A DNA stretch of 64,000 nt from Tubiluchus corallicola (lineage: Eukaryota > Animalia > Priapulida). The stretch covers positions 84,306 through 148,305 of the forward strand of contig JAQGDQ010000540.1 in NCBI GenBank assembly GCA_030141605.1, read 5' to 3'. How positions within the stretch are numbered: the first letter of the stretch is position 1; every line of letters starts with the position of its first letter. Shown here piece after piece: positions 9,285-43,900 of this stretch. Below the pieces are notes generated by a model. It was not told the DNA's origin, did not search any database, and saw only the letters and a program-made list of their open reading frames with translations. The translations under genes were made by a program, and so were the position numbers.

Positions 9285-9422
9285 CTTGAATTATACATGT
9301 GTGAAGCTTGTTTGTACTTAAACTGCAATGCTGAATAGTACTTTTTATAGAGTTAGCTAGACTTAATTAGAATGTCCTACTGCGTTTTAATATTTAAAAA
9401 AGTGAACAAAGCGGCATGCAAC

Positions 9423-12400
9423 ATGCCTAGCTTCGATTGCCATACTATGGAAGGCATCGGTGTTCGATGGACCAAATATATTGCTCGTTATAACAACACG
9501 ATGCGTGTGTTTAACGTTAACGACCCTGAGCAGTTCCTTGCATTTCTTTTTGACTTTGGTGGTGAGGATCTATATGATATATTTCATAATATCCCCAAAG
9601 AGCATAGGCAAGCCATTCCAGCTGTTGATGGTCCTCCTGCAGTAGAGGCACAGAATGTCTACCAACGAGGCATTGAAGTCCTAACGACATATTTTTCAGC
9701 TCGACAAAATACTGAATACCGGCGTTATGAATTTAGACACACAAGGCAACAACCTTCGGAAAGTCTAGTTAAGTTTATCAATAGACTAAGAGCTTTAGCA
9801 GCCACGTGTGATTTTCACGACATTAATTGCTAGCTGAAATCGCAAGTTTTAGCAGGTTGCACTTTTCAAAAATGCGAAGAAAGGGCTTAACAGAACATAC
9901 TTGGGACTTGGCAAGATTAACAGAAACTGGAAAAGCGTATGAAATCGCTGAGGCTCAAGCACATGACATTGGGCAAACTACTAGTTCAGTGCATTCACTT
10001 AGTTTATCTAACAAACGAGACAGTACTAGTACTGATACCAAAACGTTCAGAGCAATGGCAAGAAAATGCTGGAATTGCAATGGTCGACATTCGTAAAGAG
10101 ATAGATGCCCCGCTTTAGGCCACATGTGTAATAATTGTGGACTTCAAAACCATTATGCAAATTCACGCAGGTGTCACGCAGCCACTAAAGGAAAACAATA
10201 TAAGCAGTGCAATAAAATACTGCATTTCGCCACAAAGTGTCGATCGAATAAACAAAGTGTACGTCATTGGCGTCCATTTCACTAAGATAGAGTTCACACA
10301 TTAGCAGGTGGACGAGAAGAGCTTCCGCCACGTGAGAGTGCACGTGAAAGTACTATAGATAGTGATTCTGATCAAGGATGAGCAGTTAACCAACCGAATA
10401 CAAATGATTCCCAACCGGTGTTCACAATAATGATTAATGGTGTAAAAGTTGACGCCTTAGCTGATTCGGTAGCAGTGTGAATGCATTTACCTTGTGTGAT
10501 TCTGAAAAATTACCAAATAAGCCTCATCTCACGAAACATGACCATAATGTGTATGCTCATGGCAACAGTGTACCAATGAAAGTGAGAGGCAAATTTGTTG
10601 CAGAGTTGAAATCTTCAAAAGCTACTTGTAAAACTAGTGTAGTAGTGGTAAAGGACACAACTAGATTCTTCTGAGTTGGGATACGCCTAGAAAATTAAAG
10701 TTGCTTGATACAGTTGCTGTTGTGTCTAAAGACACGTCTCGTGAAGTCAAAAATCTTGTTGAAAAATATAATGATATTTTTCAGGGTGTTAAAAAGCTGA
10801 AAGATGTAAAAGCGAAATTACACATTGCTAAATCAATGCCCCCTGTTGTGCAAAATCAGCATAAAGCTCCATTTCAGTGCATAAAGACATAGAAAAACAG
10901 CTTAAGCTAGATGAAGAGCGAGATACCATCGAGCCATGGTCAGAACCGACACCAATCACAACGGTTCCAAAGCAAACTCCAGGTGAAATTCGTGTCTGTG
11001 TTGATATGCGTGCTGCTAATCAAGCCATAAAAAGAGAACATCATGCATCTCTTACATTGAGTGAGCTAGCCCAAGGTCTAAATGGTGCTACAGTGTTTTA
11101 CAAACTAGATCTTTGCCAAGGGTATAACCAGTTAGAGCTTGAAAAAGAATCACAGTATATTAAAATCTTCACGACCCACGTTGGGCTGAAGCTGTACAAA
11201 CGCTTATTCTTTGGCATTAATAGTACAACTGAAGTGTTCGAAAATGAGATTCAAAAAGTGCTTAGCGGTCTAAAAAGCGTAGATGACATCTGTGTCTTCA
11301 GGTAGACTACTGAAGAGCATCTTGAAAATCTTTGTGCAGTGATTTATCGTCTTCGTGAGAAAAGGTCTCACTCTAAATGCTGAAAAGTGCTGCTTTGAGA
11401 AAGAAGTTGAATTCTATGGGCATATCTTTTCATGTCGTGGCATTGTGCCTAATCCCAAGAAGATACAAGCTATCCTCAACATGGGTCCACCTCAGAATGT
11501 AACTGAAGTTCGAAGCCTTTTAGACATGGCTAGCTACTGTAGCCAATGATTCATAAAGAATTATGCTACAATGATATATGAGCTTCGTGAGTTAACCAAG
11601 AAAGGTGTTCAATGGCCGTGGACTGAGAAGCATCATCAAGCATTCGAAAACCTTAAACATGCCTGACAAAAGCTTCAGCTCTGGAATACTTTCACTTGAG
11701 AAGAGAAACTGAAGTATACGTGGATGCCAGTCCAGTTGGTGTATCTGCCATACTCATGCAAAAGGACCCTCATTCTGAGCATCGTTACAATGTTCATTAT
11801 GCCAGTAGAGCTCTCTCTGATGATGAACAATGCTATAGTCAAATTGAGCGAGAGGCTCTAGCAATTGTTTCTGCTTGCAAACATTTAAATATTTAGTTGT
11901 ATGATTCCTATTTTAAGACCATCGTCCACTTCTGCTCTACTTGATAGTGTTGTTTCCAAACCTAGTGCTAGAATACAAGGTTGGGCTTTAAGACTGCAAC
12001 CTCATACTTCTGACCTTGTGTATCAGTCAGGCAAATCAAATCCTGCTGACTATCTGTCGAGACATGTTACAGAGAAAATCACTATCAGTAAAGAACAGAG
12101 GTTGGCTGAAAGTATTGTAAACTATATATCTGAAAATGCTGTACCAAAACCTTTGCCTCTAGATGAAATACAGCATACTACTGAAAATGACCTTACTATA
12201 CAAACTGTAATTAAGGCTTTGACTGATTGGCATATTTACAAAAACGAACCTGGGGTAGATTACACTATTTATAATAGCTGTCAGTTGCTCCAAGCTGAAT
12301 TGTCGGCAACTTCTGACTATAAACTCCTACCTAGGGGCAATCACATTGTGACCCCTAGTGCCTTACAAAACAAGATTGTGAATCTAGCTCATCTTAGACA

Positions 12401-13103
12401 TCAAGGTATAATAGTAAAAACCAAAGCAGTGTTACGAGAAAAAGTTTGCTTCAGTGGAATAGATAACATAACTGAAAAAGTAGTTAGAGACTGTTTAACT
12501 TGCCAAATGGCAACTGACATGAAGCAGAACGAGCCGCTGTCAATGTCTCCACTCCCTCCTGCTCCATGGATGGAACTAAGTGTTGATTTCGGCTATTTAC
12601 CGAACGGTCAACACCTGTTCGCGGTTATAGATCATTATAGTCGATACCCATTCGTAGAAATTCCAATTACCACCTCAGCTAAAACAGTCAACCCCATACT
12701 TGATAACGTTTTACTTTTGAGGGGTATTCCTCTCATCATTAAGAGTGACAATGGCCCTCCGTTTAACAGTTTCGAATTTCAGGAATATGCACTTAAGACT
12801 GGTTTTAAGCATCGGAAAATTACACCCCTATGGCCTCGTGCCAATGAAGAAGTTGAACGTTTTATGGGCACGGTAAAGAAAGTCATTAAAGCAGCTTTTG
12901 CACAGTCTTTAGACTGGAAACAAGAGTTACGTGATTTTCTCTTAGCATATCATGCTACTCCACATAGAACTACAAAGTCAGCCCCGGCTACTTCATTGTT
13001 CGGTTCTGCTATTCGTACAAAACTTCCCGAAATATTACATCCAATCAGTGAAAATGAATCGAGATCACATGATTCTGTTGCAAAAGCAAAAATGAAATTT
13101 TAA
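9423..13103 (+). pseudogene. Gypsy gag-pol polyprotein pseudogene
   Basis: Fragmented ORFs 9372-9833, 9827-10096, 10477-10674, 10701-10892, 10877-11305, 11355-11549, 11696-11896, 11901-13103 in canonical Gypsy domain order. Confidence 0.93.
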
Positions 13104-17436: not shown

Positions 17437-17873
17437 TATATCACTAATATGATTAGACTCTCAAGTTTACCGGAAGGTATTTTGTACATTATAGAGAATT
17501 ATTTATTACATTAAGTTAAGATTGTATATACTATTTTGACATGTTTCATAACCTACAGGTGGCCCTATTTGAAACAAAAACTTCCTACATGCAGACTGTA
17601 GGCCAAGAGCTTTTAATTGATGAATGCATAGATGTTTGTGAATGTTAGAACCTGCTAAAGACAGTTATCTTAATAATGATTTAGAGTGAGCTCTAGGTGC
17701 GATTTTTATTGCAAATGTTTTTTTATATAATTAATAAATATATTCAACAATTACATAATTAATTAATTGGTGTAATAAATACTAAATTGAGTTGTTTAAT
17801 AAGTTAATTCTTCTTAATTATTTAATTCTTAATAAATTTAGTTAGCTGAACTATTCAAGTTTTTGCAGAAAGC

Positions 17874-18089
17874 ATGAGTGTGCCTTACGGAAAGATGGGT
17901 GAGGTGAACGACGTGGAGCCTCATCCTCAGCCTGCAGCTGCTCCTCCACCAGCAGTACCTGCAGTAGTCATACCTGCAGCACCTGTTCAGATACAACACG
18001 TAACTGCTGTACCTGGAGTGACACAACCTGCACAGCCGCCTGAATCAAAACTGTCTGTTAGATATGCAAAACCTCTATCAATTATACAG
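17874..18089 (+). CDS. First coding exon of an MS4A/CD20-like tetraspanning membrane protein gene (Pro/Ala-rich N-terminus and start of TM1); putative shared constant exon
   Basis: Acceptor TTTTTGCAG| at 17868, ATG 17874, 72 codons ending KPLSIIQ, phase-0 donor CAG|GTAATC. It joins in frame to VLCGCIA of the downstream exons. Confidence 0.85.
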
Positions 18090-19731
18090 GTAATCTTTAA
18101 TCTTTGTAATGAAATTAGTTGGCCACAAAACATGGCAATAGGTTTTTAGATATTGAACCAGATTGAACCTATTGATAAACCAGAACTAATAAACCAAAAA
18201 GTATATATCTAATCAACGATTAACACATCCTCTATCATAGTGATTACTCACAAAGTCCTTACTAACCCTTCTAAACCCTGCTTAACTTGTTTTGTCCTGA
18301 TTCACTGTTTCGTTTTCTTCTTAATCTTTTCACATTTTATTGAAATCACTTGAACAACCTCTGCTGTAAACAAGATGACAATTAGTTTAAAATTTTCAGC
18401 ATCTGGTAAAAATCTTGTATATGTTTTCAAATGCGTGGTTGTTATGACATAGTAATGTTTAATGTATTTTGTCGAAATAAAAATAAACCTTAACATGAAC
18501 TAACTTAATGGGTTAATGGTTAGTTAATTAAAGGAGAAATTAATAGTCGCAATTCAATATTAAAGGATCTGGGACCAAATTAGGGCCTGATCGAACATGT
18601 GACGTGCTAGCTATATATATATGGCCCCCCAAAATAGCTATATTGCCGGAAACTTATTGCTTTCCAAGGAGCCTGGGAGTGGCTTCTAAAATTTCCTGAC
18701 TGGATAATGGAGATAACCTCCATTTTACATTCAAACACTCAATCCAATGGCATAATTATTACAAAGATGCTGTCTGCTTCTTTGTATAAGGTGAGAGATT
18801 TTTACAGAGTGAGATAAGTAAGAGAAAAGAACACTGAGGAATATGTAAATCCTTCTATAAGTGAGGAAGCAGTAAGTTGAATTGGCAATGAATTCAGTGA
18901 AACCTTATTACTTGAGCTTTTCAAGGTGCTCGTTATTACCTGAAAGACATTTTTGACTTGCTAAACCTTTAATTGGGCTTTGTAGTTTCAAATCATCAAC
19001 AGTTTTTGGTGAACTGTGAACATGTTTCAATTGTGGCATAACTAAAAATGGGACGTATAATAACATTGCTATTGCATGAAGAGATGATCGTCACCTTTTA
19101 GGTTTCAGCTGTTTAACCACCTCAGGCTAATAAGAAAACCATGAAGAGTTGTGCACTCCAGAGCACAGCATTTTTTGTATTGCAGAAGTTTTTGTCTTGA
19201 TGTAGTTATTCAGCCTGCAGTAGAAGTGCTATATTTGTTGTAATATTTGCATCAGTTTTCATATTTTGCTAATGAATTTCTGTCAATTTGATCTATTTTT
19301 TTGACATTTTTTATTTATTTTTGGTATCGTGTCTCAAGAATGTTTGTCATGTAGGTGCATGGATTAGACTTCAAAGTGGGCAATCTTGACCTTGAATAGT
19401 CTGTAACATTATGCATGTGTTTTTTCTTCTGTCACTTACTCAAAATAATAAGTCATGGCCTGCTGTGATGCTGTGTGTAGTGATAGGATGACCTTTGCAG
19501 TTATGCACCTTTGTCGTCTGCATCTTTCTTGTGGTTTCTTGGTGAATTCCATTTTATGTAGACGATGATGATGCTAATGACCATTTTGACTCGTGATCTC
19601 ATGGTCATAAATTTTTCAGTGACTATGTTCAATGAACTAACTTCAATGTTACATGAAAGTTTTTTTGCCATTGGCTTGTGAGGTAGTAGTTTCTGGAAGT
19701 TTGTTCTTATTTTTCACCTTAACTTTCTCTC

Positions 19732-20278
19732 GTTTTGCCCGGCAACACCATTATAACATCCCTGTAGGGTGTGGCTTATGGCGTGGAATTTTTTCGTCAT
19801 TACCGGTGTTATTGGCCTTGCTGCTTGTGTGAAGCCAAAACACAGAGGCATGATAATTGCATTGATGGCCTTGTCAATTATAGCAACAGTGTTTGCTGTC
19901 AAAATAGTGATAATAAGTTCAATATACATAGCGATTACCTGTAGTTCTTTTCGATATCAATGTTGAGCTTCCAACTCTTGGTATGGATACTAATGTATTA
20001 TGCATGCCGGAGAGCAGTCAGATGTTCCTTAGCTGCTTATTGTATTCAACTGCTAATCGGAATAATGGAACAGGTATCATCTATCTGGCTGTCTATTCTC
20101 TGTTCTAAAGTTATCTGTTGTGGAAACAAGTATCATCTTCTGATCATGTACTACACAGCTGGTCAGCCACCACCACCTGTTTCTGACCCCATTGCTGAAG
20201 AACAAACTTTTCAGCAAGTTGGACATGTTCACACAATATCCAGGAATGCAAATTCACCCAACGTCCTACAGGCATAGA
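19732..20278 (+). pseudogene. MS4A-like terminal exon, decayed copy 1
   Basis: FARQHHYNIPVGCGLW..., 1-nt loss in the T run ~19790, loop deletion/frameshift ~19960-19995, acceptor region absent. The downstream sequence is homologous to 22545-23160. Confidence 0.88.
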
Positions 20279-20989
20279 GGTACTCTTTCACTAGCTAGTT
20301 GCTTTGTAGGGAATCAGGTTAGCTATATTTTCACTTGCTGGTTTTACAGGTTGGCTGACTGTTGGCTGATATAATTGACTTGTGACCTATTTACTTACAA
20401 CTACAGATATGAAATTTTGCATAAGTGAAGCTTGTCGCTGGTTACATAAACATATTTTATAGGCCTTTTTTAAAGTTCTTTGGGGTGAGAGGAAGGCCAG
20501 CCATACAATGGACAGCCCAAACATTATTCATTACAAGGCTACAAAATTGGACTAATTGGTCATTTTCACTATTTCACTGTTCTGCAGTGATAGAACTTAA
20601 TAGCCTTCTAGTCCTCGTTTCAGCCACAACGATAAATAAAGAAGATGTGAATTATTACAGCTTTCCAACACAACATTTTCTGCTTAACTATACCTTATAT
20701 CATTATTAATATATACGATACCAATACCAATAATTCCTGCATTCTTTAAACCAGTTTTATCAAAAAAAACATACTCCATTCCATTTATCACAGTTTTTGG
20801 CCAGCATAATTTATAATCTCTTCTGCACCTTAAACCAAAGTTTAAGTGACCAAACTCGATCTAAGATGACTGGAGACCCACTTACGTTCTAATTGACTTA
20901 CAAAGAACAATTTCATTTGTTGTTGTTTGGTCAGTCACTTACAGTTACTGAGTGGACTAATATTTTTTCATTTGTATGGAGATGATATC

Positions 20990-21290
20990 GTTTTTGTCAA
21001 CTTTTCCTTTACTGCCGATGCTATTGGTCTTACAGCTTGTACAAAGCCAGAAAAAAGGAGCTGGATTATTGCTTTGATGGTCATGTCAATTATGGCAGCA
21101 CTGCTTGCTGGAATTTTTATGATAGCAATTTCAATAAACATATCTATTATGTGGTTCACTTCCTTGTCACTGCTAAGATTTTAGCTATTCGTGTAAAAAA
21201 AACGAATCTACTTGCGTGTGTGAGTGCTAGAGGATAGCTAGATGTTCCTTGGCTGCAATTTGTGTTCATCTGTTAAATGGACAAACGTGA
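20990..21290 (+). pseudogene. MS4A-like terminal exon, decayed internal fragment (copy 2)
   Basis: AIGLTACTKPEKRSWIIALMVMSIMAALLAGIF..., then AGATGTTCCTTGGCTGC matching RCSLAA. Both ends are lost. Confidence 0.82.
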
Positions 21291-21938
21291 CTCAGTGTTT
21301 ATCCCTTTCTCTTTTCTGCTCTTTCAATCATATAAGCATTATCATAATAAAATCAGTTTTAGTGAATAACCTACCTATACAGCTATGATGCAACTTTTGC
21401 TTGCTGTATTGTCAAGTAGAGCTCCATTGGATGTGTCATAGGCACCCAGCTAAGCTAAGCAGTTTAGGTAAAATGTAATTATTATGGTTTGCGCAAACCC
21501 TGTGAAAGAATGTCTAAATTTCTAACTGTTTTCTAAATAAAACCAATTATAAATTTACAAATCAGCACGCTTCTACTTAATTCAGCAATATATATTAAGT
21601 TATTACAAAAACGAATAATTATTGTACCCATACAATGCATTATGTATGTAAGGAAAGTGCATGGTTCACTAAAAAATGGTTTTTTTCTGCCGGACTAATA
21701 GACAAAAATCACCATTAGATTTAATAGAAATGAAAGATGGTAATAACACTTTGGCCAAGATAAAAGTGATAGCTATAATTCCATTACTTATCATAATACC
21801 ATTCTCATTTCTCACTGGCATGATCTAGTCAGCAGAATATTTATTTTGCACTTGTTATTGCCTAATGTGCTAAATTTTTTGAATTTTTCTGCCACAAAAG
21901 TTCCAAATGAATTAAATATGCACTTTGTTTTTCTTCAG

Positions 21939-22544
21939 GTGTTATGTGGATGCATTGCCGTCATTGCAGAGATAACTGCAATTATTGTGTTTGCCCGGCA
22001 GCTCCGTTATAATTTTCCTATAGGACAGGGCATATGGTGTGGAATTTTTTTCGTTATTGCTGGTATTATTGGTTTTGCTGCTTGTGGAAAGCCGAAAAAG
22101 AAAGGCTTGATAATTGCTTTGATGGTCTTGTCAATTGTAGCAGCAGTTTTTGCTGGCATTTTATTGGTATCAAGTTCAATATACATGGCAGTTACAAGTG
22201 GTTATAATCGATACCGCTGTCAAGATTCTAGCTACTCAGACGAAACTAATGAATATACTTACACCTATGATTATGCATGCCAGAGAGCACTAAGATGTTC
22301 CTTAGCTGCTTACTGTATTCAACTGCTAATGGGAATAACGGAACTGGTGTCGTCTATCTGGGTGTCTGTTCTCTGTTGCAAAGCTGTCTGTTGTGGAAAC
22401 GCGTATCGTCCTGTGATCGTGTACTATGCAGCTGGTCAGCCACCGCCTATTTCTGTCCCGATGGCTGGAGGACAAACTTTTCAACAAGTTGGACATGTCT
22501 CTCAGTATCCAGGAGTGCAGATTCACCCCCCTCCCTATGTATAG
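21939..22544 (+). CDS. MS4A/CD20-like terminal coding exon A (intact; 273 aa when joined to exon 17874-18089)
   Basis: Acceptor TTTTTCTTCAG|GTG, phase 0. Four hydrophobic segments, GQGIWCGIFFVIAG motif, two Cys in loop 2, CC..VCC cluster, C-terminal PPPY. Confidence 0.9.
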   Translation: MLCGCIAVIAEITAIIVFARQLRYNFPIGQGIWCGIFFVIAGIIGFAACGKPKKKGLIIALMVLSIVAAVFAGILLVSSSIYMAVTSGYNRYRCQDSSYSDETNEYTYTYDYACQRALRCSLAAYCIQLLMGITELVSSIWVSVLCCKAVCCGNAYRPVIVYYAAGQPPPISVPMAGGQTFQQVGHVSQYPGVQIHPPPYV

Positions 22545-23982
22545 GCATAGAGGTACTATTTCACTAACCAGTTGCTTTCTAAGAATCAGGTAAGCTAATT
22601 TATGCAACTTCACTCGTTGGTCTCACAGGTGGGCTGATATACTTGACTTGTGACATATGCACTTCCAACAACAGAATGAAATTTCGCATAAATGAAGCCT
22701 GCTGCTACATAAACTTATTTTATGGGCCTTTTTTAAAATAGCTACAGCATGAGGGGAAGACCACCATACAAATAGGCAGTCCAGTCACATTTATAAGCTA
22801 TAAGTTCTATGCAAATATTCATTGCAAGGCTACAAGATTTGAAGAATTGGTCATTTAACATAGAACGTTTGACTTCTACTCCCAGTTTCAGTTACATTGA
22901 TAAATAAAAATGATGTAAATTATTAAAGCTTGCTAATAAGACATTATCTAATTAATTACGTTATTATATCACATAGTATTACTAATAATTGCTGTATTTT
23001 TAAAACTAAGGCAGTTTTTGCATGAAAAAACATACTCGATTCAATTTGCCACAATTTTTGTTGCCAGCATAGTTTGTAGTCACTTCTACATCCATACCTA
23101 ACTCAGTCTAAATCAATTGGAAATCTGCTATTTCCAAACTGACTGACGAAGAACAACTTCCTTTATAGTCACTGGGTAGATTATGGCTTTGTTTCTTATC
23201 CTTTGCAGCACAGGCATTTTATTTTTTTTCTTTGCCAGACACTGGCTCATAACATTACTTTGTTTTGCTGCATAGGCATTTCACAATTCTCTCTTCCTCT
23301 GTTTCAGTCATTCTCTGACTTTGCAGCCTTGTGACATAGTAAAAATCTAAAGTCTTAGAGACCTCTCTATATCTGTGAGGGTTCAATAGCTGATATTGCT
23401 AGGCAACTCTTAGACTGAAAGACCTGTGTACTGAGGCTCCAATACTGAGATCAATCTTGAATCAAAAGATGAAATAGTGAGACAAAAGAACATTGAGGAA
23501 CGAACCAATAGGTGAGAGTAAAGTTAACCGAGTGGGCAGTGACCTGAGGGAAGTCTTCTTACTTAGACTCTCTAAAATGTTCTTCGATTACATGAAAGGC
23601 AATTTTGCTTTGCAAGAACTTCAGTCTTGGTAATTTAGCTTTAATTTTTTTACTTTACTGAAAAATATTTATGAAGCATCGGTACACAATAGCATGCATA
23701 CTGCATTAACATAGTACATAGTACCATGGTACCCATTCCATTTGTTATTAAGTTCTGGGATGATAAAAAATGGCACGAAGTTTATGTTGGTTTTCCTGAA
23801 TGAGCTGCAGTTGCTTTGTTTGATTTGCTAAGTTGTACTGGTATCCATTACTCCAGTTCTAGGCAACATTGCGTTACGATTAGATCAAAGGAATCTGATC
23901 TATACCTTTAGGTACAAACTTTCAAATTAACACCAAAAATGGTCCAACTTAATTAATTTTGCACTTTTGTTTTTTTCTTCAA

Positions 23983-24112
23983 GCATTATGTGGATGCATT
24001 GCTGTCGCCGCAGAAATAACTGTGATTACTGTGTATGCCCAGTAGCTCCATTATACAACACTTATACGGCAGGGCGTATGGTGTGGAATTTTTTTCGTTA
24101 TTGCCGTTACTA
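23983..24112 (+). pseudogene. MS4A-like terminal exon, 5' fragment (copy 4)
   Basis: Acceptor mutated (TTCTTCAA|GCA), reads ALCGCIAVAAEITVITVYAQ*LHYTTLIRQGVWCGIFFVIA, then truncated. Confidence 0.85.
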
Positions 24113-26029
24113 ATATATTTTTCATCGATAAAATACAATGCATTCAAGTAAGTGTGGACAAAGCTATGATTTGACCTTAACGTTAAAAAATGCTTCAGCG
24201 ATTGCCCTAGTCTCTCCGTTACTGGCATGCCGATTAAGCTTTCCCACATGTAAATACAGCGAGAGTTAGTGTTACACTAGAGGAGTACACACTATAACAA
24301 ACCTAAACTGTCATGATCATGCAAATGAAAACACCAAATACACGAAATTTAAAGGACGTTAAAACAAATAAAAAATGACTGAATTTTTATGGACTCTATG
24401 GAAAATTGTGTTTGAGAATTACATCAAAATAATCAAATTAGTACGTTGTCATTTTCTTTTTCAATGGTTCATGTGTTAGTCCTTTCTTAATCTGCTAACC
24501 TTAATATTTCATCACTTATATAAATTACTAGGTAATAATTTCTTTATCCAAATTATATCGTTACTCCCACAACTAATATGCTTTCATACAGTCCAGTTCC
24601 TCATTTTAGCTTTGTCAGATTTACAAATTTTATTTGTTTGTTACTACTGACAGCCTTCACATGGAATATTGTGGAAACTAATTATTGTGCACTGCTTAGT
24701 ATTATGCACAATATTGTATAATACTGTAGTGACTTAAGAGATTCGCTTGCTTCTGGGCCAGAATAAGAGCTGTGATATCTTTAAAATTGCATCTGGTTAT
24801 GATTTTACCACAGGAGGCACAGTTACTGGCCATAATGATTTTGGTGTGCCAGCTTCAAAAACATATATTTTGTGCCATCAAGAGAAAATGTTGAGACACC
24901 TCAAGTGTTTTTTCCATCATGTATGCTTGAATGTGCATTCGTTTCATTTTCCCTAAATGCTTACATTGTTGATACGCACAGCTTTGCACTGGAACAATCT
25001 GATAATGGTTGAAACGCCATCTAATGGCCTTAGTAACACATGTTCTATGCATCTTACTGTGCCATAGGACTATCCTAGTTTCGGCCATGGTACTACATTT
25101 TGAGTAGGCTTATCCATAGTGTGCATTGATGAATATAGTGGCTTGACTCCATCGTGCTACTATGATATTGCCAAATGCAGGAGTGCCTAAGTACATTCAA
25201 AGTGTTTCTGTTTCATAGACTAAGTGCATAACCTCTTATCATCTCTGGAATGATGCTTTGATGATTCTTCATCACTGGTTAGCACTTGTCATTTACCAAT
25301 TTTATTAGTATGGGCAAATTATGATGCAAAAAGTGATAAAGTGAAACAGTATAATCCGTCTGTGACATCTGAAAGAATAATGTTCATTACTGGCTAGTTT
25401 TATGCGTCACTGAACTTTTTCTTTGTGTGTTCTTTTCAGCCGGTCCGTTTCATTCAGCAGTTTCGGCAGTTTGATTCAGTTGTGAAATTTATTTCTTCTG
25501 CTAGGGCTGCCTGGCCAATGGCCAGTTATTTCCAGCTTAGCTTTGATGTTGGAAGTGAAGATAATTCATGGGACAGAACTTCGCTGTTGTTTGTGTTATG
25601 GTTGAATTCCACTAACTGTTAAATAAGTTATGTCAATATAATGTATTTTGCTCAATCCAACTTGTATGGGGCTTCTTCATCAATGCCATGTGCATTCATT
25701 GAGGTTGTCTCGTAGACCCTTGTGACCACTTACTTTCAAAATACGATTGTACTGGAATAACCATGTTACCGAATTGACTACACTAAAGATAACAGCACAT
25801 GTTTCCTGTTTATAACATTAACTATGCTGAGGGTGTTGTTGTGGAGCTAAAAGATTTATACAAACTCCTAGTTTTTTGCAGAGTTCTTGCTTGTTTATAA
25901 TATCTGCGGCTATTCTGATTTTGGCTTCTATCTTTTATGTGCCTTGAAGTATGGCGCTATCTGTGATCGTGCCTCATAACTGAAATGTTCTTCTTAGAAT
26001 CTCTCTTTCACAACAAACATAATGACTGA

Positions 26030-27076
26030 GTGTATCCCTTTGTCTTTTCTTCTCTTTTAGTCAAACAAACATCATCATAATGAGTTTTACTAAATAACCT
26101 ACCCATACAGCTATCATGCAACTTTTAGTTGCTATATTGTCAAGTAGAGCTCCATAGGGCATGTCATAGACATCTAGCTAAACTAAGCATTTTAGCTAAA
26201 ATGGTATACTTGTGATTGTTATGGTTTTCCCAAACCCTGTGAAAGAATGTTTAAATGTCTAACTGACACCAATTATAAATTTACAAATCTTCTACTCCCG
26301 GTTTCAGTTACAATGATAAATAAAAATGATGTAAATTATTCCAGCTTGCTGATAACACGTTATCTAATTAATTACTTTATTATATCACATACTAATAAAT
26401 AAATGCTGTATTTTTAAAACTATGGCAGTTTTTACATAAAAAACATACTCGATTCAATTTCTCCAATTTTTGTTGCCAGCATAGTTTGTAGTCACTTCTG
26501 CATCCATACCAAACTCAGTCTAAATCAATTGGAAACTTGCAATTTCCAACTCTTACTAGGAACAACTTCCTTTATGGTCGAGTTTCTTCGTTAGTCACTG
26601 GGTGGATTGGCTTTACTTCAAAACCAGCTGACGAACCATACGTTTCATGGCTTTGTCTCTTACGTTTTGCTGCGCAGACATTTCATTTTTCTCCTTGCCC
26701 GACACTAGCTCTTAACATTACATTGTTTTGCTTCATAGGCCCTGTTTTTTTAACTTTACTGAAAAATAGTGATAAAGCAACCGTATACAGTAGCATGTAT
26801 AATCCATTACCGTAGTGCGTAGTACTCATTCCATTTGTTAAGTTCTAGGATGATAAAAATGGTACGAAGTTTATGGTTTTCTGGTTTTCCTGAACGGGTG
26901 GCAGTTGCTCTATTTGATTTGCTAAGTTGTAGTACTGGTGTCCCTTACTCCAGTTCTAGGCAACATTACGTTGCGATTAGATCAAAGGAATCTGATCTAT
27001 ACCTTTAGGTGTAAACTTTCAAATTAATTCCAAAAAATGTCCAAGTTAATTAATTTTGCACTTTGTTTTTCTTCAG
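26030..27076 (+). repeat. Mosaic duplicated intronic flank
   Basis: 26030-26290 matches ~21295-21565. 26290-27076 matches ~22873-23982 with an internal deletion. Confidence 0.8.
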
Positions 27077-27685
27077 GTGTTATGTGGATGCATTGCTATC
27101 GTTGCAGAGATAACTGCGATTATTGTGTATGCCCGGCAGCTCCATTATAGAATACCTATAGGACAGGGCATATGGTGTGGAATTTTTTTCATTATTGCCG
27201 GTATTATTGGTCTTGCTGCATGCAGAAATCCGAAAAAGAGAAGCTTGATAATTGCTTTGATGGTCTTGTCAATTGTGGCAGCTGTGTTTGCTGTCATTTT
27301 TCTGATTTTAAGTTCAATATACATATCGATTATAGGTATTTCTCTTCGGTATTTCTGTTACAGTTATGTCTATTCGTATCAAGCTAGTGAAAATATTTAC
27401 ACTTACGATTATGCATGCCAGAGGGCACTCAGTTGTTCTAGAGCTGCTTACTGTATTCAGCTGCTAATTGCAATAATGGAACTTGCATTTTCTATCTGGG
27501 TGTCCGTTCTCTGCTGCAAAGTTGTTTGTTGTGGAAAGACCTATCGCCCTGTGGTCATGTACGATGCGGCTGGTCAGCTACCATCTATTTCTGCCCCGGC
27601 GGCTGGAGGACAAACATTTCAACAGGTTGAACACGTCACGCAATATCCAGGAACACAGATCCACCACCCGCCTCCCTATGTATAG
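27077..27685 (+). CDS. MS4A/CD20-like terminal coding exon B (intact; 274 aa with the shared exon)
   Basis: Same acceptor TTTTTCTTCAG|GTGTTATGTGGATGC, phase 0, open to PPPYV*. The ORF-track start is a TTG in the polypyrimidine tract, so the exon needs an upstream exon. Confidence 0.88.
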   Translation: MLCGCIAIVAEITAIIVYARQLHYRIPIGQGIWCGIFFIIAGIIGLAACRNPKKRSLIIALMVLSIVAAVFAVIFLILSSIYISIIGISLRYFCYSYVYSYQASENIYTYDYACQRALSCSRAAYCIQLLIAIMELAFSIWVSVLCCKVVCCGKTYRPVVMYDAAGQLPSISAPAAGGQTFQQVEHVTQYPGTQIHHPPPYV

Positions 27686-30600
27686 ACATTGAGGTAATCT
27701 TTCAGTTCTTGATCGCTGTGCAACGAATTTGCAAGCTATTGCATGCAGTTTCACTCGTTGATCTTGCTCTTGGATTTAGATACGTTGACTTGTGGCTTGT
27801 ATGAAATTCCCCCGTAAATGGAACTCCTCGCCTAATACATGGTAAAAATACAAAGGCATAGGGGAATGTCACCATTCGAATGCACAACAGTTTTTGTAAG
27901 AAACTTCAACTGATAATTATAAATAGTCAAAACACAAAACGTTTTTGCTGGTTTTCTGAAACCTAAGTTACCAGCTATTTTTGCTCATTTTTGCAATTTT
28001 TTTATGTTTTAAGTTGCTAAATTATTGTTTTGTAAATTGTTGTGTTGTACTGTGTTGTTGTATAATTGTATTTAGCATAGTTTTTTTTTGCTACTGGCCT
28101 ATTATTCCTGCTTTGGTGCTAAAATTGGCTATTGTAATTGGCTGCTTCAAATTAAAATTCCAAAGAATATTTTTTGCTTAGTTAAATCTTGGTGTAGCCA
28201 ACATTCATAGTATGGGATTGCATCTTCAAACACCAGCTCTTCCAAATATAGTATAAATATTTTAATAATGGAATGTGCAGTTGTATTTCAGGCATTTCCT
28301 AGCATTTTTATATCTGCATAACATGTTAAGGTTAAGCTCAGCATACCTTTGAGCACTATAATCTTCCTGGAAACTTTTGGATAAATGGTACTATAAATTT
28401 ATATAATGCTGTGCTTAAAACATCCAACCTGAAGTAATTTTGATTAAGATTTTGCCACAAAGGAAGAGTTCTGATTATTGATATTAACTATTATGAGCAT
28501 TATTATGCTGATTTCTGACAGTTTTTTCTGAATTGAGTTTCAACTAGCATACTTACAGTTATGATTTACCATAACTGCATAAGTAATTCAAGCTGGGCTG
28601 CTCTTATTCTTATTGTTTCCATTTTTCTCTTACTTTTAGCTCCTTTTAAAGTCTTCTGCCAAATCACAAAATAGGAAATTCACTTCCTAATCTGATAAAC
28701 TCATAAAGATTCATTTACAGATGCTTACATTTTATATATTTACATTTAATATATTCACATAACTGTAATACTTTATAATCTTGTAGTCTTTGCAATAAAC
28801 ATTTGCACAGAAATAGTATGCCATGCCTATAAAAAGAAGAATAGTTTTAGAGAATTGGGGCTCGATGAAAATGATAATGGAGAAGTAACTATAACAGTAA
28901 GAGAAAATTAGTCGTCTCAGCTAACTATTCCTTATGATTTTAGATGCCAAATTGCAAAATTTGTATATTCCATTGTTACAAAAATGGGTTATCCATCTTT
29001 TGTTCAAACCAGGTTGCAGTGCAGCTACTTGTAGACAAGTTGCAGTACAAGATGGTATTGTCTAGGTCTTCTTTCCATCTAAGAGATTGTGAGTTGATTA
29101 CTGCGGCCGGAAAATACCAAAGGTTTTAAAATTGTACCTGCTGTTACTCTGCCTGCAGTGTGGTAATTAGGATAAAAGTGGGGTAATAATAGTCCCTGTT
29201 ATGTAGATATAGTTTGTTATTTACAGCCAGCAAAACGCTCTTTGAGTTTAGTCTTAAATGTTTATCTAAAAGTCGACTTTAAATAAAGACCTTATTATTA
29301 TTTTTTTTATTTTTTTTTATTAAGCTAGCAAACTGGTTATCGCAATGTTCTTAATACTCACTCATTTTGTTCACAATAAGTCAACAGCAATAAAACAAGA
29401 ATTTAACAAGTTTTTTCTGCTGTGGCCAAAATGCAAGCATGTGCTTAGTTACTTGTAAAAAACAAGTGTGCGCTTGGTTAGTCGCAAGAAATTTTGCTAA
29501 TTGCCAACTGAAATTACTGCCTTGTTGGATTTTCATCGTTTTGGACTGTGGACTATTCATTTGGAGAGTATGGCAAAGCTACAGGAAAAATGAAACAGGA
29601 CAAGGTAGTCTGTTAGTTTAATTATGTCTTTGTGTGATTAAATATTTACTTTTATGCTTAGGTTAGCAAATTCAGATTAGTGAGTTTTTTTGCAATTTAC
29701 ACAGTACTAATAGCTAATAAAAATGATAAATAAAATAAAATGATGTCACATGCAGACTAGAGAGTTCTCTCTCAACTTATTGTGCAACTTCTCTCTGAGA
29801 GTAAACTTGCAAGTGTGAACGGCTTGGCAACTTCTCTCACAACTTATTCTGGTGCTGATTTAGATTATAATGACGAAGCCTAGCCAAATTGTGTAATAAC
29901 TGATAAATTACGATCTAATACTGTATGTGTTATGTCATGCAGAATTTAGGTTTGTACATTTCATACAAATTCGTTTCATATGATATTAAACTTATTATTG
30001 AATTAAATTGCCCCGAACTGTAATTAAGCAATGCATTTTGTATAATACTAAGTTAACTAATTGAATCTCATTTAATTTGCTCTAAATATTTTCGCGAAAA
30101 CTAATGACTTTTAATCAGTGCACCTTGGAGCTGCATATGTGCCACCACGCGCGATATGACAGAATTTTATTTGGCATTTACATTGGCATTCATGAACTTA
30201 ATAAGTAAGTTTTTTCTGGAAAAATAATAACAATTAAAATAAATGATACTGTAATCACTGTAGTCCAAAAAGTGGTATGATTAAGTACTTGCTTCATTAC
30301 AGAGCACTATAATATGGATTTCTGTTTCATTGTTTGAATAGATTTCTGTTTCCCGACTCAGTAAAGTCTCGAATAATTTCAATAATTTATTTGCATGAGT
30401 TAGAACATAGCGAGTGAATAGTTTATTGATAAAGAACGATAGAAGGTCGTTATTGTTATGAGATATTTATGATATACACGAAGTCTCTGTAACAATGTTG
30501 GTATGTAAGTTCAGCTCCATGTGTTCCAAAAATTTTGCATGATAATGTAAGCACATTAGAATTAATTACATGTATAATATCTACTGCTAGAGATAAATGT

Positions 30601-32922
30601 GTCGTATTTAATGTGCTCGGTATCTGATTTTAAATATAAGCATTAGTACCTTGCAGTTTATGTGTGAATGTATTTTTATAGTTAAAACACCACAACTTTA
30701 TTAAAACTTTTAATTTACATAGTTAAAAATCATGTCAAATGTTTCGAATAGCTAAATAGGTAATGAATAAGCAGACCAGTAGAAACGAAATTAATACAGT
30801 GAATTATGCGCTAATTATATGCAGAAAGCCAAATAGGTAAGGATTATGCGGACTTGTAGAAAAGAAATTGATATAGTAACGTATAGTTGAGTGTTTGAAA
30901 ATAAAGTTAAGGGAATTGAACTGCTTTGTACATTAAGAGAAGGCTTATTAGGCTACATTAATAGACTTTGTTTTATTAATAAATTTCAGTTATTGCTAGC
31001 TCAGTGCTGAAATTATTAAAATCAGCTTTGTGACCAGAGACACAATAATGGTCATTAATGCTGGACTGAGGAGAATTTTTTAATTTCGTGCCAGTTCTAG
31101 ATGAAATACTTAAATGTTACTTACTTATACCTATATGGCCAGATATCTTGATAAGCTGTGCTTGTTTGATTATGCACAAGCACCTGGATCATTAGGTTTC
31201 AAAGATTGTCATTGATTATGGTATAAACAGTGTCCTAAGAATCAGAAGTGCGGCGATAACTTCCAGAACAGAACAGTTTACTTCCAGTGAACATTGAATG
31301 ACTGAGATGACAGAGCAATGGACCAGTAAACAGGAATTATCCATATTTCATGACTGATATACGAATCGGATACATAAGCTGTCAAATCAGCAATCACCTC
31401 ACAAGATGCAAGAATTAAGAATGTAGCTATGCACAGACACTTGCCACTTTCTCACGTCGGTCAAATTAGCTCAGAAAAAGAATTTATCACGTTTGTTTTG
31501 TTTCGGAAATCTTTCATCAATGCGTGCGCACCGAAGACAGGAAGCGATAAGAGTTTTATAAAACAATCAGAGACCTGCAGAGAACCCAGCGACTAGTATA
31601 TTTTCATTTTTGCAAATGCTAATTATTTTCAGACCACTCTCACTGCCGGTCTGGGACCGGGAGTCGGCGCGGGCAACGCCTCCTGTGAGATCAAGATTCG
31701 GGCATCCAGGTGCATGGCATAAATACCACTCTCTCTCTCTCAAGATGGCCATATTCCAGGAAAAAATAAGGGGATGACGATTGAAATGAAATCTGAAAAA
31801 TATCAATTGAACAGTGGAAAAGACTATTTTCTAAAAATATAAAGGGCAGTTCTGCCCGAATTTGGGCGTCAATTTTGCTCGAATTTTTTGAAACCCGAAA
31901 ATTTGGGGGGCAGTTCCCCCCTGCCCTGATGCATATCAACTGTTTCCATATGTCAGAAAATGCATGTTAACATAGCTCGTGATGCTCTTTTGGCCATTTT
32001 GATTGCTATTTATGAAAATTGGAAGTAATACTTTTTGGACAGTTACTACAGAGGTGGCATTAGTGTATTATTGTACTATGAGTGGGAAAAGAAAGCAAAG
32101 CACAGGTTTTGTTTACATAAATAATTTAGGGTAGAGAACAATCTGCAGCCTATCATCACTTTGTGAAAGAACTGCAACTAGCTGCAAAACAACATAATTA
32201 TAAGCTTTTTCTTCTTTGCAAAGTGTATAGATCTTAAAATGAATGAGCAAAACTCGCCCGACCAGGAACTCAGTCATGCAAAAATGGTCACTGGAAACTT
32301 GAAAACTTGCTAAATCATCATAAAGGCAATTTCCCGTCTACGCATTGCCGCATGATGCATATTCATGTGATAACGATCATGTTCGAATGAACACGGAAAT
32401 CATCACACATTATAGATTTCGTATTACATACACATGGAAACACTTCCACTTATTTAAATATAAACTGATGTGTACGCATCACGGCTCACGCATTATACAT
32501 TACCTTAAGAGTTCTTAAATAATCCCAGTTTTCTATTCATTACTTACTATTAATGAAAGTTCTCAGGGTAATTCATCAGGAGTCAGAATTATGGAAGAAA
32601 GTTTTACGCACTTACACAATTAAGAATTTTGTTATGTTTAGGTATGAGTTAATAATATATCTGTGTAAAGTAGTCTGTGAACTAGTTAAAGCTACTGGCA
32701 TCTTAAAAACAAATTTTCTGTTGAATTCTGTCTAAAATAAATGGAATGAAGTGATGGATTTGATTTTTTTTCTTTGTGTTTTGGATTGCAAACATAATTT
32801 GCATCTATATTAATTTTTCAAGCATTCTTTTACTTCATGCTGAGATCTGATGTGCTTCGAATTACTTTTGGTTTGTATAAAAATTGTCAAAATGAGTTGC
32901 AGCACTTTTTCCTTTTGTTTAG

Positions 32923-33534
32923 GTGACATGCGGATGCATTGCAAGCATTATAGAGGTAGCTGCTATTGTTATATAAGCCCAAGGACACTATCGGATTCTC
33001 CCAATAGGAACTGGTTTGTGGTGTGGATTGTTCTTCATCATTGCTGGTTCTATTGGTCTTGCAACGTGCGCAAGTCCTGGAAGAAAAGGCCTGATTATTT
33101 CTTTAATGATCTTATCCATTGTAGCTGCAGTGACTGATACCATTCTTATGATTGCTTGTGCGATATACATACCCATTTCTAACATATTCATGTCAGATTG
33201 TACAAGTTCTCAGTATTCATATGAAACTCAAGGCTTCAATTACACAACTGATTATGTGTGTCTGAGAGCAACTAGGTGGGTTTTGGCTGCATATTGTTTG
33301 CAATTGATGATTGGAGTTGCAGAGATGGTGTCTGCCATCTGGGTGTCAATTCTCTGTTGTAAGGTTCTGTGTTTTAGAAACACATATCGCCCTGTACTTG
33401 TTTACTATGGAGCCAGTCAGCCACCACCTAGTTCTAGTCCATTGACAAGTCAAACTTTTCAGCAAGTTGGGTGTACCTCACAGCACCCAGGTATTCAAAC
33501 ACAACCACCTCCTTACACGCCAGTATATACATAG
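32923..33534 (+). pseudogene. MS4A/CD20-like terminal exon C, full length with one premature stop (TAA 32974-32976)
   Basis: Acceptor TTTTGTTTAG|GTG, phase 0: VTCGCIASIIEVAAIVI*AQGHYRILPIGTGLWCGLFF...PPPYTPVYT*. The stop aligns to TAT/TTT in the paralogs. Confidence 0.8.
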
Positions 33535-34880
33535 ATTTTTTTGCTTCTGAGACTTTTTAAAAGAATACAAAATGATTTCAGTGAGGGCTTGGGGTTTTCT
33601 GAAGTTACAAGAAATGCGTGCCGTGCAGCAGAAAGTGCCAGACAATACTATTATGTATTTTGATTCCAGATATTTAATAAAATAAAAACTCATAATTTAT
33701 TAAACCAGTACAGTAGTTATCAATGGCTTGATATTGCTGAATGCATAGACTGTAATAAAATAGTTACCTGGCAGTCAGTAAGGATTATACTTAAGTAAAG
33801 CCTGTAAAATAATATATTATTAAATTTATGTGATGATCTTTCTAATCTGATTAATTATGGTATAACTTGCATAATGGAGATTCTTGTATTTGGGCAAAAA
33901 TTGTGAACATTAAATTTAGGTTATGGCCTTGGTAAATGTAAATCATAATCCTTATACATATCACTAAGAAGTGGGCATGTGACAATCATGATTTTAAACG
34001 TTTTCCACGTCTTAATGAGCACAAAGATGCTGGCTTTGGGATACGCTAATAGATACACTAAGTTATTCTCGGTATTATTCAAAATTGTCATATTTACACC
34101 ACAGTTGTTTATGGTACATGATAATGATTGTAATACTAATTTTGATTATGATGTTGATTTGATTTGAAAGTTGAATATGTAAATTTACATACAATGTTGG
34201 TGGATTTGGTGTAAGTTAAGGAATATTGAGTTTTTCTGGACAATATTCATAACCACATTTTGTCTTTATTTGGGCCTATGCCCTTTTAGATTTTTTTTGT
34301 TATGAATGCAAGTTTTTGAAAAAACTCAAATGTCAAAGGCCTAATATGTTGCGTGTAGATGTTGTTTACAATTGAATGATGAAATTGGTACATCTCATCA
34401 AAACTGATTTTGTAATGATTTTATTTATCATTTGTTCTCTATTACTTTTTTGGAGTTTGTTTTAGGTTTCTATGAGAATCTAACGTTATTATTTTTGTTC
34501 GAATTAATAGTTTGTTCATATAATATGTTAATACAATTGTATTTCATTTATTTAATATACAACTGATTTTTATTGTAATGTGATAGTGATTTGATTTCAT
34601 TAGCACTAACTTGAGTATCATGTAGATAATGCTTATATCTTTTGAGAATCTCCAACTTATGTAATCATATTGTACAATATAATTATATACTATGTAGTTA
34701 ATAATGTCATAATCTTAACGCTGAGTTTACTTTATTGTTTTTTCTTTTATAAAAAGTATTTTTTGCTAAATTGCTTCCAGTTTATCATTTTTGCAGGATG
34801 AACGTTGGCTTCGCATAATATACAGTAATGTCAGCAATTTATTTTGGATGTATTTATACAATTAGTAACATTTTAGAACG

Positions 34881-37265: not shown

Positions 37266-38168
37266 ATGGTTCCAGTTAACCACCCTGTTCTGCTCCGTAT
37301 GATCCGAGCATCTGTGGTTGCTGCCAACCATGCTGGCAACATCATTAAAAATGTCTTGAGAAATGGAAATCTGGCCATTGTTGAAAAGGGACATAACGGT
37401 CCACAGACTGAAGCTGACAGATTGTCTCAATATGCCATTGTTTCTTACCTTTCTAAGAACTTTCCCAGATGTGAAATAAAAGCCGAGGAAGTTGTAGACT
37501 CCATATCTGTAAGACTGCCTGAACCGATTATCTTAAATGCTTCTGAATCTGAACTTATTAACATTGCGTGTCCAAAATACTTGCAAAACGTTACTGAAAA
37601 AAATATTGTCGTCTGGGTGGACCCTCTGGATGGCACTGCAGAACTGGTTAAAGGATCGTTAGACTGTGCGACTGTGTTAATTGGATTATCTGTAGATGGT
37701 GTTGCAATTGCTGGCGTTATTCACCAACCATTTTACAAATCGAGCAGATCAGGCCGAACAGTTTGGGGTCTTATTGGCTATGGCGCTCATGGTATTAAGG
37801 CAGTTAGTCCTCCCGAGGACAGAACAATAATCACTACTACTAGATTACAGGCCAGCAAAAGCGTCCAAAACGCCGTTGATGCTACTGCTGCAGATGAGGT
37901 CTTATACACTGGTGGTTGTGGTAATAAAGTACTGATGGTTATTGAAGGTCAAGCTCACGCTTATGTGTTTGCGAGTGATGGATTAAAGAAATGGGATACT
38001 TGCGCTCCTGAAGCTGTGCTACATTCAGTAGGTGGACGCCTCACTGATGTTCACGGTAAACAGATAACGTACCGCAATGATGAGAGTGCATTAGTCTCCA
38101 GTGGAATTCTGGCCACATACAAAAACCATTCTTGCTACTTGAGTAAAATTTCACCTATGCGAGGCTAA
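37266..38168 (+). CDS. BPNT1: 3'(2'),5'-bisphosphate nucleotidase 1-like (inositol monophosphatase family), intronless CDS, 300 aa
   Basis: QTEADR, AEE, VWVDPLDGT, AGVIHQPFY, GRTVWG, GGCGNKV, KKWDTCAPEAVL..GG.LTD motifs. Possible 5'UTR acceptor TTTTTTGCTAG at 37160. Confidence 0.92.
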   Translation: MVPVNHPVLLRMIRASVVAANHAGNIIKNVLRNGNLAIVEKGHNGPQTEADRLSQYAIVSYLSKNFPRCEIKAEEVVDSISVRLPEPIILNASESELINIACPKYLQNVTEKNIVVWVDPLDGTAELVKGSLDCATVLIGLSVDGVAIAGVIHQPFYKSSRSGRTVWGLIGYGAHGIKAVSPPEDRTIITTTRLQASKSVQNAVDATAADEVLYTGGCGNKVLMVIEGQAHAYVFASDGLKKWDTCAPEAVLHSVGGRLTDVHGKQITYRNDESALVSSGILATYKNHSCYLSKISPMRG

Positions 38169-40919: not shown

Positions 40920-43900
40920 CTAAGGACGACACGTAAGGTAATATCTTGTCCAGACCTTCGAAGGGCTGTAATACAAAATACAAAAAATCAAATAAATTGC
41001 TTTGTATGTTATGCTTAGTTGTGGCGAAAGCTGTTTTATTTCATACTGCACTTATTTTTCCATCACAATAATAAGTGATTAACCTTATATGTATGACAAC
41101 AAATAAACTTGATCTGGATAGAAATGGAAAGATTCTTACCCAACAATTACGTAAACAGTTTGATGTAACAATTAAGTAATTAATCAATGCTTATTAGTTA
41201 TTAAGTGAACGGGGCAGAGAAAAAAGCGGCATTACGTTTATTTAAGTTTATTGCTATAAAAACATTCATACAAACAATACCGATTTTACATATATTCGGT
41301 ATTGTATTGTATAAATAATATAAATGGAAATAAAAGTTGAAATGAATGTGTTAGTAAGCATAAAAATACAGTCTAAAAAACTTTTTTACATCATTCTCAT
41401 AATATAATTGTGGCTGGCCACGAAGTCATTACACGAAGCTAATTTCCCTAAAATAAATGAAAGAACATTCTAATATTAAAGGTAAAAAAATTGCACAATA
41501 AAAGTTTTTAGCGGTATAAAAATATTAAAATATAATTTCCGTTTTCTTTTTAAAGCACAACCGCGATTTAGTTTCCTTTACATCCTATTCACATTGTTTA
41601 GAAAAATGAATTTATAGACTAGTCACTTATTCCTTATACTCATGAGGCCCACCTGCATTGTCCATCAATGCAATGTTCTACGTCAATCATTCCTTGACAT
41701 CCACATGGGTCGATGCATTTTTCTGATGTTAGGGTCCAGCTCTCTTCTAGCATTGGCCACTCAGCTAAAAAAGAACGTAATAATGAGAAGAAAGGTCCTT
41801 GTTAAAAATTGCCTGTGAATGTATTTTGTGAATCTAATAATTCATCGAGCTTTAATTTAATACTAGAGTCAAATACTTCATCGTACAGAAGCATAATTTC
41901 ACTGTACATATTTATCTTTTGTTATCATCTTGGTGACAGACTAGATGATTTTTGGACATTTCGCCACCGTGTCTCTTGGGGGGGGGGGGCTCTTAACACC
42001 ACCTGTTACTGTTATGTTTGCTTTGCTGTCGAGGCAAATAAATTTTGCATTTTTTTGATCGCAAGTCGGACAAGGCAGTTGTAAGCAGCAAAAAATCGTG
42101 TATAATAAAGTTTCATTAAGCAAACTCATTGTAAAAAAAACATTTATGGGGTCAACTGCACCCTCTATGTCAATATGGAAAAGATTTTATTTGCTTTAAT
42201 ATAATCGGTTTGTCCAGGAAACCACAACAAGTACTGATGTGCTATGCTGTAGTTCTAATTTTGCCAGTTCTGGTTGCAAAAATACCAGTGAGACTACAAT
42301 ACAGTATTTCATTCTATTGCTCAGCAAGTAGGACAATGCAACACATTACTAGATACAGTAATAATGAAATACATACGACTCGAAGTAATTACTGGTGGAG
42401 GAGTGGTTGTAGTAGTAGTAGTGGTCGTCGTCGTCGTTGTAGTAGATGTAGTTATGGGTATTTCCTTGGGTACGGTTATCTTGGGGGGTAACGTTTCCCC
42501 TTCTGGGAGAGCTTCAGATGCAATTCCAAACCGCATGTTGCCAAAGAAATCACTGAAGGGATTAAAGCTAGCCTGGAACATAGGGGGCGGTTCTGCTCCT
42601 GCTGACGTGGTTGGAGCTGAAGTAGTTGGCCCTTGAGCCTGTTTCACGTCGTTGCGGAAGTACAACGGATTTCCAGACTGGAGAAACATCACCGGAGCGG
42701 AACCGACCATGTTTGGGGGTAAAGTCGGAACGCCATTGCTGCCATCTGCTGGAGAAAACTGCCGTTTTACTCGAGCATGCTTGCTTTGAGGTTCATCATA
42801 AGCCGTCTAAAAACATGAAATTTATCACACAGTTAAAACAACTTATATGTAACATACAAATTATAAAAAATTATAGACAGCTTGTTGGTTTCCATTAGGT
42901 TTATAAATTTAGGGTTTCAATTTAGGTTGAAGTTAAGATTCGACATCCGATTTGGTTACGATGCTATAGGTGTCGCAGCTACTATAGCATTATAATCGTC
43001 TCTAATAAATTTAATTCAACGTATTTTGTTAAATATGAGCGTGGCAACACTAAGTGCATAACCATCAACAAAATACTCTAGATAAATGGTTTTGGTACTT
43101 TTCACTCTTCACCTTTGCTAAATATAAGTGAACATTTCTTGAACTGGAATTTCCGAAAATACTCTCAAGAGGCCCTATAGCCATGTATTGTTATATGTTC
43201 AAGTTGTTACTATTGTAGGACAGCTCAGACTTGGCAGACAGGACAGCTCGGAGGTGGCAACCGACAGGACAGCTTTGTGTTAGGTCAGTGGTTCCCAAAC
43301 TAGGGGTAAATTACCCCCCGGGGTAATATGGTTTTTTTTTGGGGGGGGGGGGTAACGGGCACCCCTCTGAAAATTTTTAAAACTTCGCTCGGAATGCATT
43401 TTACGTAGTTTTCTTCTTGAAGAGACTGCCTCCGGTAATACTTGTTTTGGCAACAATACAACAACAACACCTGGAAATTTATTTTATGTCACGAGCAAAC
43501 ATAAATAATTTTGCTTGCTTGTGGCATATACGTGTGTTTACTTTTTGAGTTGGAGAAGTAGTACTAGGTGGGGGGTAATGGACAAGACCGGGTTTCTCGA
43601 TTTGGGTAACGGTCCGAGAAAGTTTGGGAACCACTGTGTTAGGTAATCAAGGCAGGGCAGGACAAAAAGAATAACAAAACAGAGTAGGAGGTGGCAACCG
43701 ACAGAACAGAACAGGACAGGATATATATATATATATAATATGTGTATGTGTGTGTGTGCGCGCGTGCGTGCGTGCGTGCGTGCGTGTGTGTGTGTCCTAT
43801 ATATAATATATCCTGTCCTGATGATAATAATTTTTGCGAAAAGAGAGCAGAAAGGGCCTAAAAGTGGAGATTCGGTTCTTGCTCCATTCGGACAATTGCC

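Follow-up and report, generated by a model that had tools for sequence, protein, structure and literature searches.

A CD20/MS4A-like locus of Tubiluchus corallicola with a single first exon and candidate alternative last exons

The analysis of a 64,000-nucleotide stretch of Tubiluchus corallicola DNA (the window), which is AT-rich animal DNA, pointed to a gene of the CD20/MS4A-like class with one first exon and several tandem copies of its last exon. Two of these copies, here called cassettes B and C, are probably alternative last exons of one gene, and a third, cassette D, would have been a further one until recently or may still be so in other alleles; we give this reading a probability of about 0.6. 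The first-pass annotation had proposed a shared exon 1 joined to alternative last exons. For B and C this stands as the best genomic reading, because there is a single first exon, the duplicated unit does not contain it and C is conserved as a protein; for D it has to be qualified since that copy is broken, and no junction was observed.

The first exon and the array of cassettes

The features of the locus are as follows:

17874..18089, plus strand: first exon, the sole coding one found in 64 kb (ATG at 17874, 72 codons)
19686..20270, plus strand: cassette A, decayed, with frameshifts, a stop and a decayed 5' end without a good acceptor
20999..21287, plus strand: cassette A2, an internal fragment with stops, both 5' and 3' ends lost
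21939..22544, plus strand: cassette B, intact last exon with a phase-0 acceptor, 201 codons plus stop and encoding four helices
22903..22908, plus strand: candidate poly(A) hexamer of B, retained also at 20635 and 26319 in the homologous flanks
23983..24112, plus strand: cassette X, truncated sister of C that has lost its in-frame acceptor and has a stop at codon 21; repeat DNA follows
26289..27076, plus strand: spacer 5' of C, a copy of the B 3' flank joined to a copy of the X upstream intron, without a first exon
27077..27685, plus strand: cassette C, intact last exon of 202 codons plus stop, phase-0 acceptor
32923..33534, plus strand: cassette D, the most diverged last exon, with a good acceptor, no frameshift and one in-frame TAA
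33676..33681, plus strand: candidate poly(A) hexamer of D (AATAAA)

Exon 1 encodes a Pro-rich cytoplasmic N-terminus and the start of helix 1, and ends at a phase-0 GT at 18090, with GTAATC directly after 18089. An AG at 17867-17868, 5 nt ahead of the ATG, suggests a non-coding exon or a trans-splice site farther upstream. The six last-exon copies (A, A2, B, X, C and D) all lie 3' of exon 1, in tandem and on the same strand, and only two of the six, B and C, are intact. Much of the earlier description was thus reproduced: one Pro-rich coding exon with a phase-0 donor, six paralogous cassettes at about the positions claimed, no second Pro-rich exon among them, and phase-0 acceptors at the start of B, C and D, each directly 3' of a pyrimidine-rich AG. 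The three full-length cassettes of that description are reduced to B and C, as the in-frame TAA of D at codon 18 (32974-32976, where B has TTT and C TAT) had been overlooked.

The absence of a second copy of exon 1 within the 64 kb was established by tblastn, blastn and a motif scan, and no other first exon was detected in the window either by a six-frame HMM search of 2856 segments or by tail scoring of 1658 donors; between C and D (27686-32922) a first-exon trace was likewise absent. An HMM was built from 118 of the 150 homologues listed (out of 432 matches), those of 190-340 aa being kept and one protein, P0122, omitted. With this HMM the exon 1 donor ranked first of 881 open phase-0 donors on the plus strand between 60 and 33000, scoring +12.6 bits against +8.2 for the runner-up (mean 1.6, SD 1.9), and B, C and D each gained about 21-22 bits when exon 1 was added. 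A pattern preceding helix 1 and ending in Q is common to exon 1 and the homologues.

The acceptors of B, C and D ranked 8, 3 and 10 of 802 AG sites in 18120-33500 by an ad hoc score; intact acceptors persist on these three copies and are missing from A, A2 and X. In X, an AG one base further on would lead to an out-of-frame product of 11 codons. Joining exon 1 to B or to C gives predicted four-helix proteins of 273 and 274 aa, respectively. The earliest in-frame Met of each cassette is codon 62, the earliest ATG being out of frame, and helices 1-2 therefore need an upstream exon.

The B 3' flank (22873-23277) is copied at 26289-26740 with about 90% identity over aligned bases, the X upstream intron (23645-23982) at 26746-27076 with about 89%, and the 3' flank of A is homologous to that of B. 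These flank copies showed that the repeated unit consists of spacer, last exon and 3' flank, arranged head to tail and without exon 1. The intron of D shares only about 80 nt with that of B, and the gap between C and D comprises 5 kb rich in high-copy repeats, which occupy much of 29100-32700; the history of D is therefore less certain. Its single lesion stands on a long, constrained branch, from which we infer that the stop arose very recently, is polymorphic or reflects an error; before such a nonsense change, which would be very young or confined to certain alleles, D probably served as a third ending.

A downstream AATAAA had been put forward as evidence for the cassette endings. The motif is found 359 nt past the stop of B and 142 nt past that of D, the nearest one to C being about 1.1 kb off, and a copy of the poly(A) region of B is absent after C. 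With 26 occurrences in 17800-34500, or one per 642 nt, it was too frequent to be used and was discarded as support.

The remainder of the window contains a near-identical tandem repeat at 1-9000 (period 4206 nt) with overlapping frames of 299 and 336 aa and no Pfam match above cut-off, which resembles a tandemly repeated DNA-transposon gene, and, at 9357-13103, the broken remains of an LTR retrotransposon, among them a frame similar to reverse transcriptase and integrase frames (Pfam rve, Integrase_H2C2). An intronless gene for 3'(2'),5'-bisphosphate nucleotidase 1 lies at 37266-38168; one relative is 80% identical and others, from invertebrates and fish, about 50%, which suggests that few close kin of the host have been sequenced. 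On the minus strand, the open frames at 42321-42806 and 48729-49322 have no Pfam match and include stretches that are Thr-rich or resemble secreted proteins; they are probably exons of another gene. A 64%-identical repeat is common to intron 1 (18810-18988) and to the insertion between B and X (23470-23636).

Protein family and selection on the copies

The Pfam CD20 profile (PF04103) recognised B (score 36.8), C (37.4) and the part of D following its stop (30.9), all above the gathering threshold of 27.9; CD20-like is used here for a class defined by Pfam, profile and fold, the trees of homologues being without known vertebrate rows. The family profile matches Fc-epsilon-RI beta (E 4e-17) and CD20 (E 5e-12). 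In an AlphaFold2 model of B (pLDDT 84) helices span residues 2-19, 28-48, 53-87 and 110-148, and a hairpin at 93-108 lies in the second outer loop; the model is consistent with four membrane helices, both termini in the cytoplasm and a second outer loop that is the larger one, the orientation being taken from the family. The top match of the model by VIA-align was Fc-epsilon-RI beta (8k7t_B; Z 14.8, rmsd 2.7, 135 residues aligned), a result to be read with the caution due to helical bundles, 9c3c_n following within 1 unit of Z (13.9). The top Foldseek matches belonged to the same family, at E 0.012 only.

In the accessible text of PMC2826416 it is argued that invertebrates are without true MS4A genes, and at odds with this, that of 10.1101/2022.08.15.492342 describes clustered ascidian MS4A genes with variable outer loops. 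CD20 can serve as an odorant receptor in mice according to PMC11026480. From family membership and loop variability, the products of the present locus are predicted to act, probably, at the cell surface as receptors or as subunits of receptors, and the second outer loop would be what makes their contact with ligands differ.

The profile search gave 432 matches at E<=0.001. Among the 150 listed of these, no pair with a shared N-terminus and different bodies was found, in a set whose 50% clustering would hide isoforms. A word-based protein search with B yielded 0 of 324 candidates, an alignment search that scored 7998 proteins gave 17, none a close relative, and a metagenome scan returned 1 locus (L001), which matched weakly over 30 residues. 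P0122 groups with B, C and D (97/97, on a long branch) and leads in the Atlas to CD20-family clusters at 0.92. Its family-like part starts right after Q and is preceded by unrelated residues, as if the same intron position had been read through.

The nearest named homologues are LOC106819398 and LOC106815388 of Priapulus caudatus (XP_014679524.1 and XP_014675327.1), at about 35% to B. They share with exon 1 a short PYGK motif near the N-terminus (pairwise E 0.07, weak). Unlike the present locus they are two separate genes, whose N-termini resemble each other without being identical, and they fall outside the B/C/D group in a quick tree. Each homologue having its own N-terminus, they are taken to have arisen by whole-gene duplication, which counts against the model of alternative last exons.

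Pairwise dN/dS, computed over 198 codons, was 0.46 for B-C (95% CI 0.29-0.74), 0.32 for B-D and 0.30 for C-D, and that of B-C outside the second outer loop was 0.38 (p=1.5e-4). On the individual branches it was 0.88 for B, whose branch is very short, 0.36 for C and 0.28 for D at a dS of 0.98. Purifying selection has acted on B, C and D. In codons 1-61 the ratio was about 0.5 for B-D and C-D (p about 0.04) and 0.73 for B-C (p=0.58). The B-C dS was only 0.14 in these codons, versus 0.31 for all codons outside the loop and 0.35 overall, so that gene conversion could contribute and could inflate the contrast between X and C. Over the 126 nt shared by X and C, 15 changes fell on X and 2 on C (p=0.002).

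By codon position, the differences from B in a 56-codon block numbered 5/6/16 for C as against 8/8/7 for the dead A; between X and C the changes were 5/9/4. The dead copies A and X look neutral. The probability that the frame of C survived neutrally since the X/C split was about 0.002 with the indel rates of the flanks and 0.19 with substitutions only. In the 3' block the C lineage had 10 synonymous and 9 nonsynonymous changes; the pooled synonymous to nonsynonymous counts, 7:23 in dead versus 16:20 in live lineages, did not differ significantly (p=0.12).

The second outer loop is 31-35% identical among B, C and D, whereas the helix and tail blocks are 53-81% identical. Positive selection on the outer loop found no support in the B-C loop dN/dS of 0.67 (p=0.58), a value from 27 codons of copies too few for site models.

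Sequencing runs and the weighing of explanations

Two sequencing runs were compared, X1, of unknown kind and possibly from the source sample itself, and X2, which is probably RNA. Contigs of X1 were identical to the window over 17892-18243, including the exon 1 donor region, and over 23221-24126, including the lesions of X. The X1 contig across the TAA of D has 3 differing letters and 2 gaps somewhere along its length. X2 contained B-like contigs (two variants over 22386-22480), C-like and D-like contigs, 87-94% identical to the window. Among the 8 pieces listed of 18 records no exon 1-cassette joint was present. At 80% likeness exon 1 had no cover in X2; B and C were likewise bare in their 5' parts, as was D at its 3' end. 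One D-like contig starts at the AG of D and is preceded by about 6 unaligned letters (read from the record coordinates), which are compatible with splicing and too short to assign.

One loose end in X2 resembles a small-RNA library adapter and would presumably fit an RNA library. In record 8 (33091-33383) the last 29 letters of a D-like contig are similar to the beginning of that contig; this 293-nt back-jump would shift the frame and is either a library chimera or an internal duplication. Over 21939-22540 and 32921-33383, the 5' part of the family was D-like only and the 3' tail B-like only in X2, with summed depths of about 142 and 140; the organism of X2 possibly has mosaic cassettes.

The locus could instead be an ordinary two-exon gene, exon 1 plus B, trailed by silent partial duplicates, with C young or repaired from B by conversion and D dead. 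We consider this possible but rather unlikely. The broken state of four of the six copies, which birth-and-death churn predicts and which is a point against the alternative-last-exon model, would suit it, as would the low B-C dS at the 5' end, which fits conversion, the 0.19 survival of the C frame when substitutions only are counted and the missing junction among the X2 pieces listed. It is hard to reconcile with a B-C dS of 0.35 overall, the C branch dN/dS of 0.36, the C-lineage changes in the 3' block (10 synonymous, 9 nonsynonymous), the restriction of intact acceptors to B, C and D, with none on A, A2 or X, and the C-like contig of X2.

It appears quite unlikely that D, and perhaps C, were once separate two-exon genes whose own first exons were lost recently through repeat insertion or deletion, the stop in D coming later. 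The absence of a first-exon trace in 27686-32922 argues against such a loss, and the DNA upstream of C has been a 3'-flank copy since at least the X/C split, even though the long, constrained D branch (dS 0.98, dN/dS 0.28), the high-copy repeats over much of 29100-32700 and the whole-gene duplication in relatives would be in keeping with it. Trans-splicing is known for lola and mod(mdg4), and an N-terminus supplied in trans, or by a first exon outside the window or in a distant paralogue, could explain why X2 has no exon 1 cover yet a D-like contig starting at the AG of D, as well as the AG 5 nt before the exon 1 ATG. Since the cassettes are all on one strand, 3' of a matching donor, cis-splicing suffices; no positive sign of trans-splicing was seen and the literature search gave nothing relevant, and we hold this origin to be very improbable.

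The reading of B and C as alternative last exons thus remains the preferred one. A CD20/MS4A-like gene would have had its last exon, and not its first, duplicated in tandem. From a single promoter, exon 1 would be spliced to B with the transcript ending there, or the transcript would be read through and exon 1 spliced to C, the choice probably being a competition between ending after B and reading on to the acceptor of C. The outcome would be two four-helix proteins with a common N-terminal tail and different outer loops. Broken upstream copies, being without working acceptors, would probably be skipped. The first-pass annotation had called the choice mutually exclusive; this is trivial for terminal exons and hence no sign of regulated choice.

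Relation to known cassette genes

Protocadherin and UGT1 are variable-first-exon clusters, in which a constant part is combined with one of several large variable exons in tandem by promoter choice. The polarity of the present locus is opposite, and the choice would be made by splicing and 3' end formation. Insect GST genes are a further precedent, for which no paper was found in the literature search.

The closest design is that of the 3' tandem variable cassette genes, of which fly and human examples are described in the accessible text of PMC6191721; to call the system undescribed in kind is therefore too strong. The Drosophila examples given there are PGRP-LC, CG42235 and Pip. In these genes the 5' exon or exons are common and are joined to a single 3' cassette out of a duplicated set, in which every cassette carries its own end; PGRP-LC is a receptor, and what varies in it is the extracellular domain responsible for recognition. 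Duplicated terminal cassettes behind shared exons were thus already known (PMC3228551, PMC6191721, as far as their accessible text goes), and ordinary competition between splice sites can be enough at 3' clusters according to the same part of PMC6191721.

Within the 64 kb, similarly, one shared upstream exon stands before cassettes without first exons of their own, and B and C, unlike D, are homologous terminal cassettes with same-phase acceptors and their own stops. Unlike in the fly genes, the cassette is a single exon encoding about 74% of the protein and nearly all of the four helices. The locus, known here from its genomic layout, further differs from the fly genes in having only two to three live copies and no docking/selector RNA pairing above shuffles, the best duplexes (-22.8, -27.1 and -22.4 kcal/mol) lying inside the range of 8 shuffles each. 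The design is known from Drosophila, and what is distinctive is that nearly the whole membrane protein forms the variable part.

Variable outer loops and conserved helices are shared by the MS4A/CD20-like family and the locus. Ascidian MS4A genes form clusters of separate genes, 29 in Ciona in the accessible text of 10.1101/2022.08.15.492342, whereas here the expansion is inside one gene. No MS4A/CD20-like gene with alternative last exons was found in the literature searched, which consisted mostly of papers open without subscription, without their supplements. A bolder picture, in which a single promoter and N-terminal tail would be combined, in each cell, with one whole four-helix last exon picked from an array under birth-and-death turnover, so as to diversify chemosensory or immune receptors of MS4A type, the stop in D being a segregating null or a base error and cassette number varying among individuals and species, we regard as unlikely.

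If the junctions are confirmed, the MS4A/CD20-like family would be expanding here by last-exon duplication within one gene, and the locus would offer a small natural test of the birth and death of a 3' cassette array, with two copies live, one just broken and three dead. At such loci gene predictors will miscount.
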